Shown here: piece by piece, positions 11,248 to 30,508 of the stretch | How the letters are laid out: each line of letters begins with the position of its first letter | How positions within the stretch are numbered: position 1 is the stretch's first letter | Assembly (NCBI GenBank): GCA_963667045.1 | Contig: OY762934.1 | Location: 904,510 to 936,509, forward strand | Length of the DNA stretch: 32,000 nucleotides | Origin: an uncultured Cohaesibacter sp. | GTDB lineage: Bacteria; Pseudomonadota; Alphaproteobacteria; Rhizobiales; Cohaesibacteraceae | Direction: 5' to 3' | Made by a program: the position numbers and the translations under genes | The notes under the pieces: generated by a model | The model's input: only the letters and a program-made list of their open reading frames with translations | Told to the model about the DNA's origin: nothing | Databases searched by the model: none

Positions 11248-12651
11248 TCACTCATTATACGCGGGCAATACCAGTGTTGCCTTCAAGCCTCCGAGGCCAG
11301 AGCGGCTCAGGGTGAATTCCCCTTGATAAAGGCTAGAGAGCTCGGAAACAATCGACAACCCCAGCCCCGACCCCGGCTTACTCTCATCAAGCCGCCGCCC
11401 TCTCTTCAACGCGATCCCTATCTCTTCATCAGCAAGCCCAAGACCATCGTCCTCAACTATAATTGTCAACCAGCTTCTGGTCACGTTCTTCGCCCTGACT
11501 GCAGTTTTGCCACGCTGACCGAAACGCTCTGGGTATAGTGATATGATGACCTTTGTTTTGGCCCATTTGCACGCATTGTCAACGAGGTTACCGATCATCT
11601 CTTCCAGATCCTGCACCTCACCCCTGAAGCTGATCAGGTTCGCATCATCGCTCAGCAACGCCACATCAATCCCGGGATAGATCTTGCCCATCACGCTCGC
11701 CATCTTCTGCAAAATCGGAGAAACATCAGTGACCGTACCGATCGTATTGTGGCGAGCAGCAAATCGGGCACGATCCAGATAGAGCTGTATCTGATCCCGC
11801 ATCACGGCGACCTGCTGAACAAGCAACGCTGCCTTGTCACCTTCCGAAGACCTCACTTCGTTGGTAATGACAGACAAAGGCGTCTTGAGCGCATGCGCAA
11901 GATTGCCCAGTTGGGTCCGGGCCCTTTCGAGAGTTTCCTGATTGGAGGCAATGAGAATATTCGCTTCTTCCACTAACCCAGCCACCTCAGTCGGATAATC
12001 ACCCACAATAGTCTGGCTATTGCCGTTGGCGACGTCCCTCACTCTCTTTTGCAATACCCCTAACGGCTTCAAGGCACTGCGGACAAGAAGAAGGGATACG
12101 ATTAGAAGAATAGCGCCAAAGAGCGCCATGAGCAGCCATGCCCTGTTTTGGAACTGAGAGACTTGAGCGTTCAACTCCTCAGCATTCCCAGTCACCCTGA
12201 AATAGTAGCTCTGATCCGGTCCGAACGAAATCTGCCTCTCAAGGATGCGAATTTTCTTGTGATCGGGGCCATGACCAAGGAGATAGCGCCCAATTCCTCC
12301 CGTGTATTGTTTGGCACTTTCCGTCTCAATAGAGAAATTTTCTCCCCCCAGAGACAGAGAGGCAAATAGCAACTCATCTCCCTTGACCTTGCTGACGGTC
12401 CAATACCATCCGGAAAGCGGCAGTTCGAAGCGCGGCTGACCAAGATTGCCCGGTTTCGACAATTCTTCAGAACTGAAAAGCTGGGTGGCCAGATCGCCAA
12501 CAAGGACTTTCAGAACGATATCGAGTTGCTCATCGAAGGAATCCTCAGCAGCACTGCGAAACAGCGAGGTTAGAAACACCCCCGCCCCCAGGGCCGCCAG
12601 AAGCGCCCAGACCGAAATATTGACAACAAGATACCGCGTAATCGACTTCAT
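11248..12651 (-). CDS. PhoQ-like sensor histidine kinase
   Basis: Two TM segments flank a periplasmic domain, followed by a HAMP region. H-box LAHALKTPLSVI resembles PhoQ HSLKTPLAV. N box NLVDNACKWA, G boxes EDDGLGL and GSGLGLSIV. The start ATG shares one base with the regulator stop (TAATG at 12649-12653). Confidence 0.9.
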   Translation of the reverse strand: MKSITRYLVVNISVWALLAALGAGVFLTSLFRSAAEDSFDEQLDIVLKVLVGDLATQLFSSEELSKPGNLGQPRFELPLSGWYWTVSKVKGDELLFASLSLGGENFSIETESAKQYTGGIGRYLLGHGPDHKKIRILERQISFGPDQSYYFRVTGNAEELNAQVSQFQNRAWLLMALFGAILLIVSLLLVRSALKPLGVLQKRVRDVANGNSQTIVGDYPTEVAGLVEEANILIASNQETLERARTQLGNLAHALKTPLSVITNEVRSSEGDKAALLVQQVAVMRDQIQLYLDRARFAARHNTIGTVTDVSPILQKMASVMGKIYPGIDVALLSDDANLISFRGEVQDLEEMIGNLVDNACKWAKTKVIISLYPERFGQRGKTAVRAKNVTRSWLTIIVEDDGLGLADEEIGIALKRGRRLDESKPGSGLGLSIVSELSSLYQGEFTLSRSGLGGLKATLVLPAYNE

Positions 12652-13322
12652 TACTTCGTCGCTTCTGGTGCAACCATGTTGTAGCCCAATCCTCTCACCG
12701 TCTGGATGGCATCAATTCCCAGCTTCTTGCGCAGACGCCCGATAAAGACCTCGATCGTATTGGAATCACGATCAAAGTCCTGATCATAAAGATGTTCCAC
12801 GAGCTCTGTACGCGAGATGATCTTTCCCTGATGGTGCATCAAATAGGAAAGCAGACGAAACTCGTGTGATGTCAGTTTGATGGTCATCCCGTCCACCGTA
12901 ACCCGCCCCGATCTTGCGTCAAGCCGGATAGGACCGCAGGTTATCTCGTTTGAAGCCAGACCGGCGGAGCGACGGACAAGGGCCCTTAGACGGGCGACGA
13001 CCTCTTCCATATGAAAAGGCTTGGCAACATAGTCATCGGCACCAGCATCAATGCCCTGCACCTTGTCGCTCCAGCGATCACGAGCCGTGAGAATAAGGAC
13101 CGGCATTGTCCGCCCGTCACGTCGCCATGCTTCCAAAACACTGATGCCATCCATCTTTGGCAAGCCGATGTCCAAAATGACGGCATCATATGGTTCGGTA
13201 TCCCCGAGGAAATGCCCCTCTTCACCGTCGAATGCGCAATCAACGACATAGCCATTCTCTTCCATTTCTTCCTTGAGCTGGCGATTCAACTCGACTTCAT
13301 CTTCGACGACCAGAATGCGCAT
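12651..13322 (-). CDS. PhoP-like OmpR-family response regulator
   Basis: 223 aa. Receiver domain with ILDIGLPKMDG. TARDRWSDKVQGIDAGADDYVAKPFHMEEVVARLRALVRR closely parallels E. coli PhoP. Winged helix ends in VRGLGYNM. Confidence 0.93.
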   Translation of the reverse strand: MRILVVEDEVELNRQLKEEMEENGYVVDCAFDGEEGHFLGDTEPYDAVILDIGLPKMDGISVLEAWRRDGRTMPVLILTARDRWSDKVQGIDAGADDYVAKPFHMEEVVARLRALVRRSAGLASNEITCGPIRLDARSGRVTVDGMTIKLTSHEFRLLSYLMHHQGKIISRTELVEHLYDQDFDRDSNTIEVFIGRLRKKLGIDAIQTVRGLGYNMVAPEATK

Positions 13323-13409: not shown

Positions 13410-13736
13410 TCACTTGCCGTTTACTGAAATGACACTTCCCGATCTGGCATCCAGTTCGAGGCGAGACACATTGCCCTGCCGCGATAAAATAACCAACTCA
13501 TAAACCAAACGCCCACCGTCCGAGCAAAGATTCGCCTTGATCACGTCACCGCGCACGACCGCATTGGCCGCTTGCGTGATCGCAACCAGACTTTTCGCCC
13601 GACCGTCGGATATCGCCTGCCGAACTGCTCCGCCACCAAGGCATTCTGCCGCTGTGGCAGGTTCGCCCGGAACGAGAAGGGAGACAATCAGCAGAGCCAA
13701 TACCCGGAGAGCACAGATGTTGATCCATTTTTGCAT
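13410..13736 (-). CDS. secreted PepSY-like domain protein, first gene of the two-component operon
   Basis: 108 aa with a signal peptide (LVPGEPATAAE), then a PepSY-like pattern (GDVIKANL...RLVYELVILSRQGNVSRLELDARSGSVISV). The small periplasmic protein + regulator + kinase layout resembles feuN-feuP-feuQ type operons (architecture only; homology unverified). Confidence 0.7.
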   Translation of the reverse strand: MQKWINICALRVLALLIVSLLVPGEPATAAECLGGGAVRQAISDGRAKSLVAITQAANAVVRGDVIKANLCSDGGRLVYELVILSRQGNVSRLELDARSGSVISVNGK

Positions 13737-13758
13737 GAAGGCAATTTATCGTCAGGTC

Positions 13759-13776
13759 GCTGAACCGAAGCTGAAC
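13759..13776. promoter_or_regulatory. perfect 7-bp direct repeat GCTGAAC-cgaa-GCTGAAC (11-bp period) upstream of the PepSY/RR/HK operon
   Basis: Read directly from the sequence. It lies 23-40 nt upstream of ATG 13736. The geometry fits tandem winged-helix regulator binding. Function is inferred only. Confidence 0.25.
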
Positions 13777-13831
13777 GCAATTCGAGACGCCCAGAGGCGC
13801 GAAACTGGCTGAAAATATCGTTAAAGTCCTC

Positions 13832-14083
13832 CTACTTACCACAGTAGCGCACGATTTTCTGGTTGTGTCGCTTGATTTCAAAAATGGTTTGATCGGTGTC
13901 TTTGGCTGACCATGAGATCGGATCGAAGAGAAGGCAGGCCGCCAGTTTACCAGCCATCTGGTTGCCAATGGAGGAACTGTCCAGTGTTGTTGCCTCACCC
14001 CCTCCGGAACCCATCTGAGCTGCGCAACCGGTCAAGGCCGTCATCACGATGACCATCAGCCAATTCCTTTTCAACGGGATCAT
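13832..14083 (-). CDS. small lipoprotein, o-spanin-like, overlapped with the upstream ORF
   Basis: ATG 14083 with GGAGG 3 nt upstream. Signal peptide plus lipobox (MIPLKRNWLMVIVMTALTGC). 63-aa mature protein with two further Cys. It starts inside the 13995-14291 ORF in another frame (89-nt overlap), the arrangement seen for overlapped Rz/Rz1-type spanin pairs. Confidence 0.55.
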   Translation of the reverse strand: MIPLKRNWLMVIVMTALTGCAAQMGSGGGEATTLDSSSIGNQMAGKLAACLLFDPISWSAKDTDQTIFEIKRHNQKIVRYCGK

Positions 14084-14291
14084 TTTCCTCCAGCCTTTCA
14101 GACGCCCCCCATTTGGCATTCATCAATTGTTCCAGCAGCTTGTCTGCGTCTGCTTTCCAGGAATTATTCTTGCCAGCAGCGGGTACCCGTTTTGTCGGTT
14201 GCTCTGGTTCACTGTATCGGGTGAACAGTGAAGCCAGCATCGGAGCCAGCTTCACCAGAAGGCTTAAAACCTTCAAGATAACTGCTACCAT
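13995..14291 (-). CDS. 98-aa N-terminally anchored charged protein, i-spanin-like
   Basis: Internal ATG 14291 of the 159-aa track ORF, 5 nt after the preceding stop. Hydrophobic N-terminus MVAVILKVLSLLVKLAPMLASLF, and the rest is highly charged (KADADKLLEQLMNAKW...EENDPVEKELADG). No SD, so translation would rely on coupling. The coding status is the weakest of the trio. Confidence 0.4.
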   Translation of the reverse strand: MVAVILKVLSLLVKLAPMLASLFTRYSEPEQPTKRVPAAGKNNSWKADADKLLEQLMNAKWGASERLEENDPVEKELADGHRDDGLDRLRSSDGFRRG

Positions 14292-14296
14292 GCTGG

Positions 14297-14506
14297 CTAA
14301 AGCAGCTTCTTGGTTGTATACCAAGTGCGCCAGATGATCGTGGCCGCAGCGGCTAGGCTGGAGATGGTCATTGCCAGACGCTGCTGAACATCGGGATCCA
14401 GATCGACCCCAAACATGGTCAACCCCATTGCAGCCACGGAAACAATCTGGGTCCAGTTGATTTTGGATTCCCAAGCTGGTTTGGATGACTGGTTCGTGTC
14501 ACTCAT
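14297..14506 (-). CDS. 69-aa two-TM membrane protein, class II holin-like
   Basis: ATG 14506 with AGGAG 6 nt upstream. Two predicted TM helices (IVSVAAMGLTMFGV and LAMTISSLAAAATIIW) and a basic C-terminal tail (RTWYTTKKLL). SKxNW...LxP...RTxxTT resembles small holin-type proteins of alpha/beta-proteobacterial phages, recalled from memory and not searched. Confidence 0.55.
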   Translation of the reverse strand: MSDTNQSSKPAWESKINWTQIVSVAAMGLTMFGVDLDPDVQQRLAMTISSLAAAATIIWRTWYTTKKLL

Positions 14507-20451: not shown

Positions 20452-20471
20452 TGACTTGTTCCGATTGATAC

Positions 20472-20508
20472 AAAAAAGGGGCCGTTTCCCTTCACTGGAA
20501 GTAGCCCC
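20472..20508 (-). terminator. intrinsic-terminator-like hairpin between g11 and g12
   Basis: Minus-strand RNA: GGGGC-UAC-UUCC-AGUGAAG-GGAA-ACG-GCCCC followed by UUUUUUG (plus-strand A run at 20472-20477). Confidence 0.45.
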
Positions 20509-20577
20509 GCCTGCCGTTGCATGTCACATTGATAAGAGCCGAGCGCTTCAAAAGGCGCTATGCAGCGTCGCCCCGAT

Positions 20578-23951: not shown

Positions 23952-24010
23952 ATCGACACCATTGCAAATGAAACAGTCAAGACATCTGACGATGCAGCTG
24001 ATTCAATGAA

Positions 24011-24078
24011 GAAAAATGCCTTTGCCGAGAGGGAGAAAACCGGCAAAGGCACAAGGTGGGGCGGAGCATTCTCCGCCC
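24011..24078 (-). terminator. two tandem hairpins after the capsid gene, the second a canonical intrinsic terminator
   Basis: Minus-strand RNA after the g5 stop: GGGCGGAG-AAUG-CUCCGCCC (24078-24059), then UGCCUUUGCCG-13 nt-CGGCAAAGGCA (24051-24017) followed by UUUUUCUUCAUU. Confidence 0.6.
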
Positions 24079-24096
24079 GCGGGGTCAGATCATCAA

Positions 24097-27797: not shown

Positions 27798-29159
27798 TCA
27801 GATTGCCCGAACTTTCGGTTGCGACCGATCGCCGAGGCAGAGATGCGTCACGGCCCAGACCATTGCGTCAAGCCGGTCGGGGCTTTTACCAGACGACAGG
27901 CCGTCCAGTCCGAAGTCACACATTTCATCTTCCAGTTCGGCCATGTTGCCGACGTGGCGCACCCGGCCCTGCTCATAGAGAGCGCTGACAGGTTCAGCGC
28001 GCAGATATTTCCCACGCGTTGCCCGCACAGGCCGGACAGGCACCGTCGCATCGATATTGCCGAGGATGGTCGTCACCATTTCCCCGCCCTGATTGACCTC
28101 GGCCACCACGCAATCGGCCTCGAAGCGGTTGTAGAGCGCAATGGCCTTGGTTGCCCAGGCTGTCGGGCGGGCGCTGGTCAGCGTGCTGTCCCTGAGGATG
28201 AAGCACAAACCGTCTGCGTCTACCCCCGCCACCACCAACCCGCAGGCATCGGCGCTCTTGCCCGAGGTTGCAGGTGGATCGACAGCGACCACAATCCGGC
28301 TGAGAGTCGCGGGAGGATCATCGACCCTCAGCCGGTCGAGCTGATCGCGCTTCCACAGCGCGTCGGCCCTGTCTTCGATCAATTCACCATCCAGTTCCTG
28401 CCGTCCGAGGCGCGAGCCTTCATAACGACGCACGATGGTATCGAGAAATCCTGGCGCCAGATTGGCCAGATTGGCCCGCGTGGGGGCGTGGCTGATCGCC
28501 GTGGCAGGCTCTGCCATCAGCCGTTTGAGCAAGGGTGTCGGCTTGGGCGTTGTGGTCACGATCTGGCGCGGCTTTTGCCCCAGACGCAGGCCAAACTGGA
28601 GCATGTCCCAGGTGGCCTCGGCATGACGCCACTTGGCCAGCTCATCGCCCCAGGCCGCATCGAACTGTGGCCCGCGCAGGCTTTCGGGGTCTTCGGCCGA
28701 GAATATCTGCGCCACCGCACCGTTTGGCCATTCCAGTCTGCGGCGAGAAGGCTGCCAAACCGGTCGATCTTCCTTTGCGTGAATGGCCAGAAGGCCGGAC
28801 ACCCCTTCGACCATGACATCACGGGCGTCCTGAAGGGTTTCGCCGATAAGGGCAATCCGACCATAGGAGTGCGCAGCGAACGGCGGCCTACCCTGCACCA
28901 GCGCTTTGACCCATTCGGATCCGGTGCGCGTCTTGCCTGCACCACGCCCTCCCAGAACCAGCCAGGTGATCCAGTCACCTTCAGGCGGCAACTGATCCGG
29001 TCTTGCCCAGAGCTCCCAGTCGTGAAAGATCCGCCTCAGTTCAGTGGGGCTGAGACTCGCCAGAAAGCTCGCCTGCTGTTCCCTGCTTGAGCCCATCAAG
29101 GCGGCGCGCAAGTTCATCGCGGAGGAGGTCAAGCGTGCCTGTGTCTTCGCTGCTGTCAT
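27798..29159 (-). CDS. g2: large terminase subunit (RcGTA g2 type)
   Basis: LSPTELRRIFHDWELWARPDQLPPEGDW followed by Walker A LGGRGAGKT. Start uncertain: ATG 29159 has AGGAAAGAGG 6 nt upstream, and ATGs also occur at 29117 and 29096. Every canonical (ATG/GTG/TTG) start overlaps g1 out of frame by at least 56 nt. Confidence 0.93.
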   Translation of the reverse strand: MTAAKTQARLTSSAMNLRAALMGSSREQQASFLASLSPTELRRIFHDWELWARPDQLPPEGDWITWLVLGGRGAGKTRTGSEWVKALVQGRPPFAAHSYGRIALIGETLQDARDVMVEGVSGLLAIHAKEDRPVWQPSRRRLEWPNGAVAQIFSAEDPESLRGPQFDAAWGDELAKWRHAEATWDMLQFGLRLGQKPRQIVTTTPKPTPLLKRLMAEPATAISHAPTRANLANLAPGFLDTIVRRYEGSRLGRQELDGELIEDRADALWKRDQLDRLRVDDPPATLSRIVVAVDPPATSGKSADACGLVVAGVDADGLCFILRDSTLTSARPTAWATKAIALYNRFEADCVVAEVNQGGEMVTTILGNIDATVPVRPVRATRGKYLRAEPVSALYEQGRVRHVGNMAELEDEMCDFGLDGLSSGKSPDRLDAMVWAVTHLCLGDRSQPKVRAI

Positions 29160-29625
29160 CGCCGGCCTCTTTCCTGTCGTTGGCGTCATCCTGTCCCTGC
29201 GGATTGAGTTCCATGATCTTGTCGAGCGTCCGGGCGATTGTGCCCAGCATCCGCGCTTCCTTTTCATCAAAGGCGGCGCTACCGTTCTTCAGCTGCTGTT
29301 CAAGATGGCGAATCTGCTGGTCGGTCGCGTGATAGAGCCGCCGAACCATGGACAGGTGATCAATCCCGGCGTCTGGTGCTTCCGATCCGTCAGGAACACT
29401 TGACGCGATGGAGGCTGGTTCGTGCTCACCGATCGGGCTTTCTGCAGCGGCTTTTTCATCAGATTTCTGGTCAGTCTTCTCTACCTCCCAGAGTTTGCGC
29501 CTCTTCCTCAGCGTTGCAACGCTGATGCCATGGGCGGCGGCGATTGCCGCAAAGGACCGTTCTCGCTTCAGACAATCAAGCCGAACAGCCGTCCAGTCCG
29601 GTTGCCGTGACCGTTTGTTTGGCAT
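29041..29625 (-). CDS. g1: GTA g1-position protein, putative small terminase with N-terminal helix-turn-helix
   Basis: 194 aa from ATG 29625 (AGGA 7 nt upstream). HTH-like RSFAAIAAAHGISVATLRKRRK, an acidic low-complexity linker, and a helical C-terminal half. It is the first gene of the cluster, immediately upstream of the large terminase. Confidence 0.7.
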   Translation of the reverse strand: MPNKRSRQPDWTAVRLDCLKRERSFAAIAAAHGISVATLRKRRKLWEVEKTDQKSDEKAAAESPIGEHEPASIASSVPDGSEAPDAGIDHLSMVRRLYHATDQQIRHLEQQLKNGSAAFDEKEARMLGTIARTLDKIMELNPQGQDDANDRKEAGDDSSEDTGTLDLLRDELARRLDGLKQGTAGELSGESQPH

Positions 29626-29751
29626 GCAAATTCCTGATTCAATTTGGCGTGGATCTAAAGCCCAACCCATCCGGCATCAATCAGCCCCTTCCGCAAAGGC
29701 CAAGGCCAAGACCTAGGAGCGGACAGACAAAGCCCACATGAGCAAAGGCAT

Positions 29752-29781
29752 AAAAAAAGCCGCTCCGGCGAGCCGGGCGGC
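29752..29781 (-). terminator. strong intrinsic terminator 126 nt upstream of g1 and 197 nt downstream of ycgN
   Basis: Minus-strand RNA: GCCGC-CCGG-CUCG-CCGG-A-GCGGC followed by UUUUUUUAUGCC (plus-strand A7 run at 29752-29758). Confidence 0.7.
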
Positions 29782-29859
29782 AGATGACTTGAAAGGGCCG
29801 ACGAGCCCAAATAGAACACACAAGCGGAATGGAGCCAAACTTGCTCACACCTTTCCGAC

Positions 29860-29877
29860 TGTAGCTAATATGTAGCT
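29860..29877. promoter_or_regulatory. perfect 7-bp direct repeat TGTAGCT-aata-TGTAGCT (11-bp period) in the GTA upstream region
   Basis: Read directly from the sequence. On the minus strand it reads AGCTACA-tatt-AGCTACA and overlaps the candidate -10 element. Function is inferred only. Confidence 0.3.
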
Positions 29878-29897
29878 CACAACCGTTCGGTGGTCAA
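29869..29897 (-). promoter_or_regulatory. candidate sigma70-type promoter (TTGACC-N17-TACATA) facing the GTA cluster
   Basis: On the minus strand: TTGACC (29897-29892), a 17-nt spacer, then TACATA (24-nt AT-rich tract further upstream). The -10 is weak, so this is a tentative call. Confidence 0.25.
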
Positions 29898-29977
29898 GCA
29901 AATTTCTTCTTATAGTTGTAATTTTCTAGTTTAAATTGAATTTTTTAAACCAAATCAACAGTTTGCCCGGTGTATTT

Positions 29978-30508
29978 TCAGCCCCGCTTGAGCACGACAG
30001 GATCATCGTCGGGGTCTTCTCCCGGCCAGTCGGCAATGTGGTCTTCATAGTCCTCGACCTCCATCCCCTCTTCCGAAATGACACGTCCCCTGACCGAAAT
30101 ACCGGCCTGATGGATGGTATCAGGATCACCGGAGACCAGCGGGTGCCACCAGTAGAGGTCATAGCCCTCATCCAGCAATCGATAGGCACAGGTAGGGGGC
30201 AGCCAGGACAGGGACTCGACCTTTTCCGCATCCAGCGGCACACAGTCGGGAATCGTCTCCAGCCGGTTTTCATAATCCTTGCAACGACAGCTTCCGGAAT
30301 CGAGCAGACTGCAGGCTACATTGGTCCAGATGATCTCGCCAGTGTCCCAGTCCTCCAGCTTGTTGAGGCAGCAACGGGCACACCCGTCGCAGAGGGATTC
30401 CCATTCGGCGCGGCTCATTTCATTGAGCCTCTTCACCTGCCAGAAGGGCTTTTCGAATTCGGCAGTCGGATCAACTGTGGCGATGAGATCCGGTTTCTTG
30501 TCGGTCAT
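29978..30508 (-). CDS. ycgN: YcgN-family cysteine-cluster protein (UPF0260)
   Basis: 176 aa. [14 protein letters not shown]...[19 protein letters not shown] is the YcgN cysteine pattern. Confidence 0.9.

Follow-up and report, generated by a model that had tools for sequence, protein, structure and literature searches.

A conserved promoter and a terminator-bearing leader at the head of an RcGTA-type gene transfer agent cluster in Cohaesibacter

The spacer upstream of g1

This analysis concerns the spacer between ycgN and g1, the first gene of a gene transfer agent (GTA) cluster of the Rhodobacter capsulatus type (RcGTA), in a 32,000-nucleotide (nt) stretch of contig OY762934.1 from an uncultured Cohaesibacter sp., referred to below as the window. 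Both genes and all features of the spacer lie on the minus strand, so that coordinates fall in the direction of transcription. Downstream of g1 and on the same strand are the g2 terminase, portal, S78 protease, capsid, DUF2460, BR0599-type hub, NlpC/P60 and GTA_TIM genes, and the genes downstream of the leader make up a complete RcGTA-type cluster. The g1 protein gives a weak HTH_28 match, and its N-terminus, M(P/S/R)xK..(R/K)PDW, is kept in the related loci L001-L003. The segment is almost certainly the head promoter and 5' leader of the Cohaesibacter RcGTA-type cluster. A preliminary description of the spacer had named an AT-rich tract, a promoter-like element, a direct repeat, a nested stem-loop and an intrinsic terminator, and all five are present on the minus strand at the positions that it assigned to them (Table 1). 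Three of the five are functional and conserved. The promoter, the A-rich upstream tract and the terminator are the only ones that stand above chance, and these three, together with about the first 20 nt of the transcript, are kept in three further Cohaesibacter genomes and one metagenome contig.

In the notation used for alphaproteobacterial promoters, the window promoter reads CTTGAC-N17-CTACAT and matches the consensus at 11 of 12 positions. TTGAC is present in 50 of the 52 non-redundant related promoters. The -10 hexamer aligns without gaps with the TAGGGT (28 of 52), TAGGTT and TAGGAT of relatives and with the TAGAGA of R. capsulatus, and T at -12 and A at -11 are nearly invariant. The RNA is predicted to start near 29861. 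Simple consensus scans reported neither the promoter nor the terminator of the window, since they demanded a T at the sixth position of the -10 element and disallowed bulges. The A-rich tract contains a distal box, CTAGAAAAT, at ~29929-29921 and a proximal box, AAGAAGAAAT, at ~29911-29902, which are ~21 bp apart; in 52 non-redundant GTA heads of Hyphomicrobiales, one or two copies of (A)TAGGAAAAT(A) occupy the corresponding positions. A common GGAAAA binding motif in the upstream box and in the conserved box at the transcription start (the +1 box) was considered and rejected, the shared part lying outside the best-conserved columns. Seven loci (L083, L085, L091, L092, L095, L096 and L101) carry an extra motif, GTCA(C/A)(G/A)TAT(A/G)T(A/G)(A/G), ~15-30 nt 5' of the TAGGAAAAT box.

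Within the spacer between -35 and -10, CGAACGGT is invariant throughout the Cohaesibacter-clade sequences, and its counterparts are GCGTsACGGTG in other Hyphomicrobiales and GCGAACGC in R. capsulatus. The related promoters often hold a palindrome here: CACCGT-G-ACGGTG, a perfect 6-1-6 palindrome, occurs in 13 of 52, and arms of at least 4 bp occur in 25 of 52 promoters versus 7 of 52 shuffled spacers. The element occupies the location of ZBE, the GafZ-binding palindrome of Caulobacter, and falls within the GafA-bound probe pGTA2 of R. capsulatus. MerR-type activation at the palindrome was considered and rejected, as the spacer has the optimal length of 17 bp, not 19-20 bp.

The leader terminator was recovered by a bulge-tolerant, RNAfold-based scan as a 9-bp stem with one bulged A and a CUCG loop, followed by U7 (-16.5 kcal/mol). 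L001-L003 retain it, with the bulge displaced and a single G-C pair replaced by A-U, and L237 retains it with another stem sequence. When a terminator was defined as a single hairpin of -11 kcal/mol or lower followed by at least five T in eight positions, 62% of the 52 non-redundant leaders contained a canonical terminator within +1 to +200. The same rule was satisfied by 8% of the reverse complements, 13% of upstream DNA segments, 4% of coding DNA segments and 19% of shuffles (maximum 27%). The stem sequences vary by genus, and thus it is the structure of the leader terminator and not its sequence that is conserved. Many of these terminators are strong, their stems of -17 to -26 kcal/mol being followed by U6-U8. 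No more than 14-30 nt separate the start of the U-tract from the g1 start codon in at least 15 loci; this distance accommodates a ribosome-binding site (RBS) and not a promoter, so that g1 in these loci can be transcribed only through the terminator. The same bulge-tolerant scan bore out the internal terminators that the preliminary description had placed in the GTA cluster, with two strong intergenic ones (Table 1). The first lies directly 3' of the capsid gene in the intergenic gap 23952-24096, and the second lies 5' of the DUF2460 (g12) gene in the gap 20452-20577. The relatives' loci, as fetched, end before the positions equivalent to both.

The remainder of the leader is far less constant. 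The +1 box, which covers the initially transcribed region, has the consensus G.CA..GTCg.A.Aa.TGcG in 31 loci; its R. capsulatus counterpart is GGCATGCTAGGAGAGGTG, and T.GGA.AGGTG is common to that sequence and the window. Past ~+22 the leader body turns over completely between genera, and the terminated leader RNA ranges from ~50 to 165 nt in length. The hairpin SL1 contains the nested stem-loop of the preliminary description; L002 and L003 also form a hairpin at this position, in another register. No compensatory pairs were found in SL1, which has no counterpart in the short-leader genera, and the small hairpin SL2 is lost in L003 and altered in L237. Both internal hairpins are lineage-specific. 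The stability of the whole leader is not unusual (z = -1.5 and -1.7). A check for covariation gave no convincing support for the internal hairpins, in an alignment whose five sequences were too few and in which MAFFT misaligned the L237 terminator. Further downstream, the distal leader is unalignable among Cohaesibacter species except for its last ~20 nt, a consensus scan of 29626-29751 gave no promoter-like site, and the equivalent segment is only 14-30 nt long in other genera. A riboswitch or an attenuator with alternative structures was rejected: the shortest leaders, of ~55 nt, consist of the +1 box and the terminator, no covarying alternative helix was found, and Rfam gave no match.

Three minor features of the leaders were also observed. 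In the R. capsulatus probe, L219:1470-1560 and L004:4655-4715, the purine-rich +1 box (GGAnAnGTG) and the U-tract or TTTTCA tail of the terminator are complementary. The terminated RNA of short leaders is predicted to fold as one long hairpin. TTTTCA recurs 3' of the leader hairpin in many loci.

Table 1. Coordinates of the features of the ycgN-g1 spacer, its flanking genes and the internal terminators of the cluster
Feature	Position	Strand	Sequence or remark
ycgN (CxxCxxCC/UPF0260)	29978..30508	-	upstream neighbour; Pfam PF03692
A-rich upstream tract	29899..29932	-	proximal box abuts the -35 element; the AT-rich tract of the preliminary description
-35 element	29893..29898	-	CTTGAC; promoter also read as TTGACC (29897-29892)-N17-TACATA
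Spacer element	29880..29893	-	CCACCG-AA-CGGTTG; core palindrome ACCG-AA-CGGT (29891-29882)
Perfect direct repeat	29860..29877	-	AGCTACA-TATT-AGCTACA; copies 29877-29871 and 29866-29860
-10 element	29869..29874	-	TACATA; preceded by G at -14
Predicted transcription start	29860..29862	-	7-9 nt past -10; from promoter geometry and R. capsulatus alignment
+1 box (initially transcribed region)	29846..29865	-	GCTACAGTCGGAAAGGTGTG; conserved to ~+22; stretches GGAAAGGTG and TCGGAAAGGTG
Leader hairpin SL1	29820..29862	-	predicted (RNAfold); contains the GGAA..GAGC..GCTC..TTCC stem (29856-29826)
Small leader hairpin SL2	29795..29808	-	GGGCUCGUCGGCCC; predicted
Leader intrinsic terminator	29752..29781	-	GCCGCCCGG-CTCG-CCGG(A)GCGGC + T7; 126 nt to g1 ATG
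Distal leader	29626..29751	-	ends in RBS AGGAA (29635-29631)
GTA g1	29041..29625	-	start ATG 29625, not the upstream ATG 29670
Internal intrinsic terminator	24008..24052	-	13-bp stem, -20.0 kcal/mol, then TTTTCTTC
Internal intrinsic terminator	20470..20508	-	GGGGCU..GGCCCC, -14.8 kcal/mol, then TTTTTTGT

Recurrence of the module among relatives and in R. capsulatus

Many Hyphomicrobiales have a GTA terminase downstream of ycgN, and a set of 80 loci around ycgN homologues was compared with the window. A blastn search of these loci with the window spacer gave only Cohaesibacter matches. Inspection of the spacers revealed the architecture of the window spacer in Mangrovibrevibacter, Aureimonas, Pararhizobium, Devosia, Pseudovibrio, Shinella, Hoeflea and others. 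The common layout consists of RGAAAAT boxes, CTTGAC, a 17-bp spacer with GCG..CGGT (often palindromic), TAnnnn, the +1 box, a variable leader and g1, and the consensus anchored on the -35 element is tAgGAAAAta.tcCTTGAC.gCGt.ACGGTg.T..G.TAgggtT..G.CA..GTCg.A.Aa.TGcG.

A profile of the promoter region, spanning -45 to +58, gave exactly one match per locus in 57 loci, which represent more than 12 genera of Hyphomicrobiales; every match is on the gene strand, and with the exception of one at chance level they lie upstream of GTA g1/g2. The profile matched 31 of the 80 ycgN-anchored loci as well as the window, and gave no match in the ycgN loci without a nearby GTA. It also matched all 23 viral contigs obtained by a pattern scan, 22 of them strongly and L098 at chance level (E = 0.05). 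As in the window, the module lies directly 5' of g1 of an RcGTA-type structural cluster, and on its strand, in 30 genome loci and 22 viral contigs. Wherever g2 was in range the match lay upstream of it, with the single exception of L037, whose terminase differs. The module is located 0.4-3 kb beyond ycgN in 14 loci and thus travels with the GTA, not with ycgN. In the viral contigs it has neighbours other than ycgN, yet it stays directly upstream of g1. The conserved promoter motif is a specific marker of GTA heads, as 21 of the 23 viral pattern matches have a GTA terminase within ~1.2 kb; of the other two, L083 has a g1-like open reading frame (ORF) and L098 is a chance match. Scans of viral contigs with two Cohaesibacter-type patterns gave 0 matches and 48 chance matches. 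Two scans of metagenomes gave 0 and 15 matches, among which L237 was the only true relative, the rest being an unrelated conserved locus or chance.

The R. capsulatus sequence used for comparison was assembled from the electrophoretic mobility shift assay (EMSA) probes pGTA1-5 in the supplement of Fogg 2019 (PMC6363796). The assembled promoter reads CTTGAC-TTTGCGAACGCTTCAAGG-TAGAGA-TAAGGCATGCTAGGAGAGGTGGGCAA-GCGCCGCGGGTGACCGTGTGCGC-TTTTTTCATTT...ATG, in which GCGCCGCGGGTGACCGTGTGCGC followed by U6 is a terminator hairpin ~50 nt 5' of g1. Like the window module, it is located directly 5' of g1 and has CTTGAC, a spacer of equal length, a GCGAACG(C/G) spacer motif, a TAnAnA -10 element, a T.GGA.AGGTG +1 box, and a hairpin with a U-tract before g1; its GCGAACGC and T.GGA.AGGTG resemble CCGAACGG and TCGGAAAGGTG of the window. 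A 12-sequence cross-order alignment that includes R. capsulatus has invariant TTGAC, the TA of the -10 element, G..A near the start and TG.G in the +1 box. The two leaders differ in extent: that of R. capsulatus is short, with its terminator at ~+25 to +55, whereas that of the window has ~60 extra nt with two lineage-specific hairpins and a further 126 nt past the terminator. Unlike the window, R. capsulatus lacks the A-rich RGAAAAT boxes, which are absent from its probe pGTA1. The Hyphomicrobiales profile alone does not reach Rhodobacterales-type loci, and the link between the window and R. capsulatus therefore rests on short motifs and identical architecture. The segment is an ortholog of the GafA-bound RcGTA promoter of R. 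capsulatus.

The R. capsulatus promoter has been characterised experimentally. Its start site was mapped by RNA-seq inside the segment covered by pGTA2, and GafA binds this probe, which contains the spacer, the -10 element, the mapped start site and the +1 box (PMC6363796, PMC9638019). The C-terminal domain of GafA binds the core fragment and the N-terminal domain binds flanking fragments (Sherlock and Fogg 2022, PMC9638019). Homologues of gafA, often split in two ORFs, have been reported in Rhizobiales (Fogg 2019, PMC6363796). The word 'terminator' is absent from the main text of both PMC6363796 and PMC9638019, so that the leader terminator is apparently undescribed in these papers, and a search of the literature on RcGTA and terminators found no description of it. 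A conserved leader terminator of the orthologous RcGTA-type promoter thus appears not to have been described previously.

A more distant, Rhodobacterales-like group of four loci (L196, L206, L215 and L219), retrieved with a terminase alignment, has the arrangement CTTGAC-TTTGCGnnCGGTC-...-GTAtAc-...-GCATGCTGGAAGAnGTG-hairpin-U tract. Different lineages seem to use different upstream regulators, with the core promoter and the terminator retained. CtrA-box-like TTAAC/GTTAA half-sites replace the RGAAAAT boxes 5' of the -35 element at L196:800-830, L206:1720-1790 and L219:1400-1440. A block CTCGTGC(R)G...GCATGAGA(G/A)G is found 3' of the leader terminator in L206, L215 and R. capsulatus (pGTA3/4). 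The L219 version of this block has diverged (CTTGTGCCG...GCATGGGAGCG), and the R. capsulatus version includes an ATG 5' of the annotated g1 start.

The preliminary description had left three readings side by side: a small RNA gene, a long 3' untranslated region (UTR) of ycgN, and a GTA leader whose terminator must be overridden. The comparisons support the third, as the module is always found with g1/g2 and is kept apart from ycgN, recurs in the mapped R. capsulatus promoter, and in relatives often places its terminator 14-30 nt before g1. Conservation in related GTA loci, which had been proposed as a check on the leader and the repeat, is confined to part of the segment: the promoter, the +1 box and the terminator are kept, and the repeat and the leader body are not.

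Proposed passage of the leader terminator

The most likely mechanism is a promoter-loaded antitermination gate of the lambda-Q/GafZ type, to which we assign a probability of roughly 0.6, because the spacer element, the leader terminator and the internal terminators match a GafZ-type system. RNA polymerase would initiate at ~29861 from CTTGAC-N17-TACATA, and an unmodified polymerase would halt at the 29781-29752 terminator and release a ~105-nt RNA. The same terminator would halt polymerases arriving from ycgN. Read-through would be restricted to a polymerase that had acquired the GTA activator at the promoter, this activator being GafA or a split GafY/GafZ homologue positioned on the spacer element between -35 and -10. 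The activator-carrying polymerase would then clear the terminator of the leader as well as the two internal ones and transcribe g1 to g15. Two features of such a module, a terminator between the promoter and the first gene and further terminators inside the cluster, are present in the window. Termination at the leader in vivo and the identity of the factor are what we infer from this arrangement, in which read-through would be factor-dependent rather than leaky.

The model for this mechanism is the first-gene promoter of the Caulobacter RcGTA-type cluster, PgtaT, on which IHF, GafY and GafZ act. Caulobacter GafZ, the counterpart of the C-terminal domain of GafA, recognises a palindrome located between -35 and -10; together with NusA, NusG and NusE it functions as an antiterminator of the Q type that moves along with polymerase, and it allows passage of rrnB T1 as well as of a terminator that follows the first gene (PMC11150451). 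It also improves expression through the long leader (PMC11150451). Tran and Le 2024 compare GafZ to lambda Q and AlpA and suggest that R. capsulatus GafA may have an unrecognised antitermination activity (PMC11150451). The window module resembles PgtaT in its position before the first gene, in the inverted repeat between -35 and -10 (ZBE in Caulobacter, where it is needed to load GafZ), in a long untranslated leader (251 nt in Caulobacter), in an AT-rich or IHF element upstream, and in the likely need for terminator bypass in whole-cluster transcription, which is established in Caulobacter (PMC11150451). However, the Caulobacter terminator consists of three 150-bp repeats 3' of gtaT with no canonical hairpin and U-tract, and the Caulobacter palindrome is unrelated in sequence (GCGCCCG-CTGGCGC vs. 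CACCGT-G-ACGGTG or ACCG-AA-CGGT). A similar arrangement is that of lambda PR'-QBE-tR', in which a factor element is located between -35 and -10 (putative in the window), a nearby terminator causes unmodified polymerase to make a short RNA (lambda 6S), and long late operons contain further terminators. In contrast to lambda Q, there is no relation in sequence or protein and no conserved pause element in the window, and the factor here would be a helix-turn-helix protein resembling sigma region 4 (GafZ or the GafA C-terminal domain).

Several observations weigh against the antitermination gate. About 38% of related leaders do not satisfy the strict terminator definition; in several of them, such as those of Aureimonas and the Rhizobium group, a strong hairpin is paired with a less marked pyrimidine tract. 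Some Cohaesibacter species have a weak or imperfect palindrome in the spacer. A search of the initially transcribed region gave no conserved pause element of the -10-like type: TAnnnT was seen between -3 and +27 in just 29% of leaders, at positions that are not fixed, and is absent from the +1 box of the window; a different engagement signal could lie in the conserved +1 box. In the stretches covered, namely the 32-kb window and the 8.5-kb Cohaesibacter loci, gafA and gafYZ are absent. The -35 element of the window is a consensus one, whereas that of the Caulobacter GTA promoter is poor (AATCAT) and the promoter is activator-dependent (PMC11150451), so that control could differ, and the mapped Caulobacter terminator is located after the first gene, not in the leader (PMC11150451). 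The start site and the termination in this organism are predictions from sequence. The text of the R. capsulatus probes was machine-read; the forward probes overlap consistently, and the listed reverse strands hold reading errors.

The main rival, which is unlikely but far from negligible, is a passive attenuator or insulator. The terminator would never be actively overridden and GafA-type activation would operate at initiation only; the terminator would block read-through from ycgN, remove a fixed fraction of transcripts and keep basal expression of the lethal cluster low. In agreement with this, ycgN has no terminator of its own, no sigma-dependent pause element is conserved, and GafA is described as an activator that recruits polymerase via the omega subunit (PMC6363796, PMC9638019). 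The variation in terminator strength, with ~38% of leaders having none or a weak one, also suits tuning better than an obligatory gate. However, the strength of many leader terminators and the presence of more strong terminators within the cluster speak against it, and GafZ, the homologous protein, is a demonstrated antiterminator that is loaded at a promoter palindrome in the same position (PMC11150451).

An improbable alternative is that the unit is an independent gene for a trans-acting small RNA (sRNA), which adjoins the GTA cluster by chance and, from a constitutive promoter, yields a ~105-nt RNA pairing with other mRNAs. The anatomy, in which a good promoter and a canonical terminator delimit a short transcript, is typical of sRNA genes, and the first 20 nt are strongly conserved, as is common for sRNA seeds; a terminated leader RNA would exist in any case, as does the 6S RNA of lambda. 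However, the RNA body is conserved neither in sequence nor in length between genera, the unit is found only at GTA heads and once per locus, and many genera leave no room for a separate g1 promoter downstream. The conserved block also reaches into untranscribed upstream DNA and matches the protein-bound promoter of R. capsulatus. A search of the whole window against Rfam at the gathering score gave no match, and a 600-nt region searched with an E cutoff of 10 yielded nothing beyond chance-level hits (CRISPR-DR49, suhB/mmgR and PVT1). The turnover of the RNA body and the lack of an Rfam match disfavour this reading. Membership of suhB/mmgR (RF00519) was considered and rejected, the score being 13.8 bits against a gathering score of 41 (E = 4.3) and the defining UCCUCCCU motif being absent. 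The resemblance to alpha-r8/MmgR consists of a short transcript in which a small hairpin precedes the terminator, with a weak cmscan alignment at 29744-29824.

The direct repeat had been proposed as an operator, and a repressor site formed by the two AGCTACA copies at an 11-bp period over the -10 element and the start site is very improbable. The repeat is perfect, and its position would suit a repressor. A 7-bp repeat at a period of exactly 11 was found in 2.4% of dinucleotide shuffles, in line with the ~0.02 given for chance in the preliminary description; this figure does not hold as a measure of rarity when any period of 8-30 is allowed, as 40% of shuffles then contain such a repeat. The copies diverge independently in the relatives L002, L003 and L237, the pairs in the Cohaesibacter clade including AGGTACA/AGCTACA, GGCTATA/AACTACA and CGCTATA/AGCTACA, and have no counterpart in the GTA heads of other genera. 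The first copy consists of the last spacer base and most of the -10 element, and the second is the beginning of the conserved +1 box, so that separate conserved elements account for each half. The repeat is judged to be a coincidence of the -10 element and the +1 box, and the proposed operator is not borne out.

A long ycgN 3' UTR ending at the leader terminator is more remote still: the bulge-tolerant scan found no terminator between the ycgN stop (29978) and the GTA promoter or further on up to 29781, as the preliminary description had noted for the region directly 3' of the stop, so that ycgN transcripts probably do end there, yet the supposed UTR contains a conserved promoter of its own, and the unit follows the GTA, being 0.4-3 kb away from ycgN in 14 loci, having other neighbours in viral contigs and being missing from GTA-less ycgN loci.

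GTA production kills the producer, which makes the silencing of the cluster, and its later activation in a few cells, a central question. It is possible, though doubtful, that in RcGTA-type GTAs generally, R. capsulatus included, the main on/off switch is the leader terminator and not initiation. In that case the promoter, with its consensus -35 element, would fire in all cells and yield only a hairpin RNA of 50-110 nt. GafA or GafZ would then be a Q-like antiterminator, with the spacer element and the conserved +1 box as its loading site, that carries polymerase past the leader and internal terminators, and the terminated leader RNA, which would be abundant, could itself be functional. Antitermination by GafA was proposed earlier without a known substrate, and a canonical leader terminator would supply one; its structure, not its sequence, is maintained in two orders, and the published R. 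capsulatus probes contain it. Reporter fusions close to g1, or quantitative PCR of g genes, that include the leader cannot separate initiation from read-through.

Neighbouring genes and atypical loci

The product of ycgN is 98% identical to a Cohaesibacter haloalkalitolerans protein. At the other end of the cluster, an OmpR-type response regulator (12651-13322) and a histidine kinase (11248-12651) are encoded on the minus strand close downstream of the last GTA gene, and two small ORFs without a Pfam match (13546-14474) lie between that gene and the regulator/kinase pair.

Among the related loci, L037:4460-8300 (Aureimonas altamirensis) has the same promoter and leader terminator 3' of ycgN. 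Its next large genes, of 509 and 628 amino acids, were not detected as RcGTA terminase homologues and resemble a different terminase/portal pair; the regulatory module may here drive a replaced head module. In L058:5347-6702 (Pseudovibrio sp. Alg231-02) the GTA terminase contains an in-frame stop, which could reflect a pseudogene or a sequencing error. Seven of the chance-matching metagenome contigs (L233, L234, L236, L241 and L243-L245) share an almost identical, GTA-unrelated stretch of ~250 nt, which is a conserved locus of an abundant soil organism.

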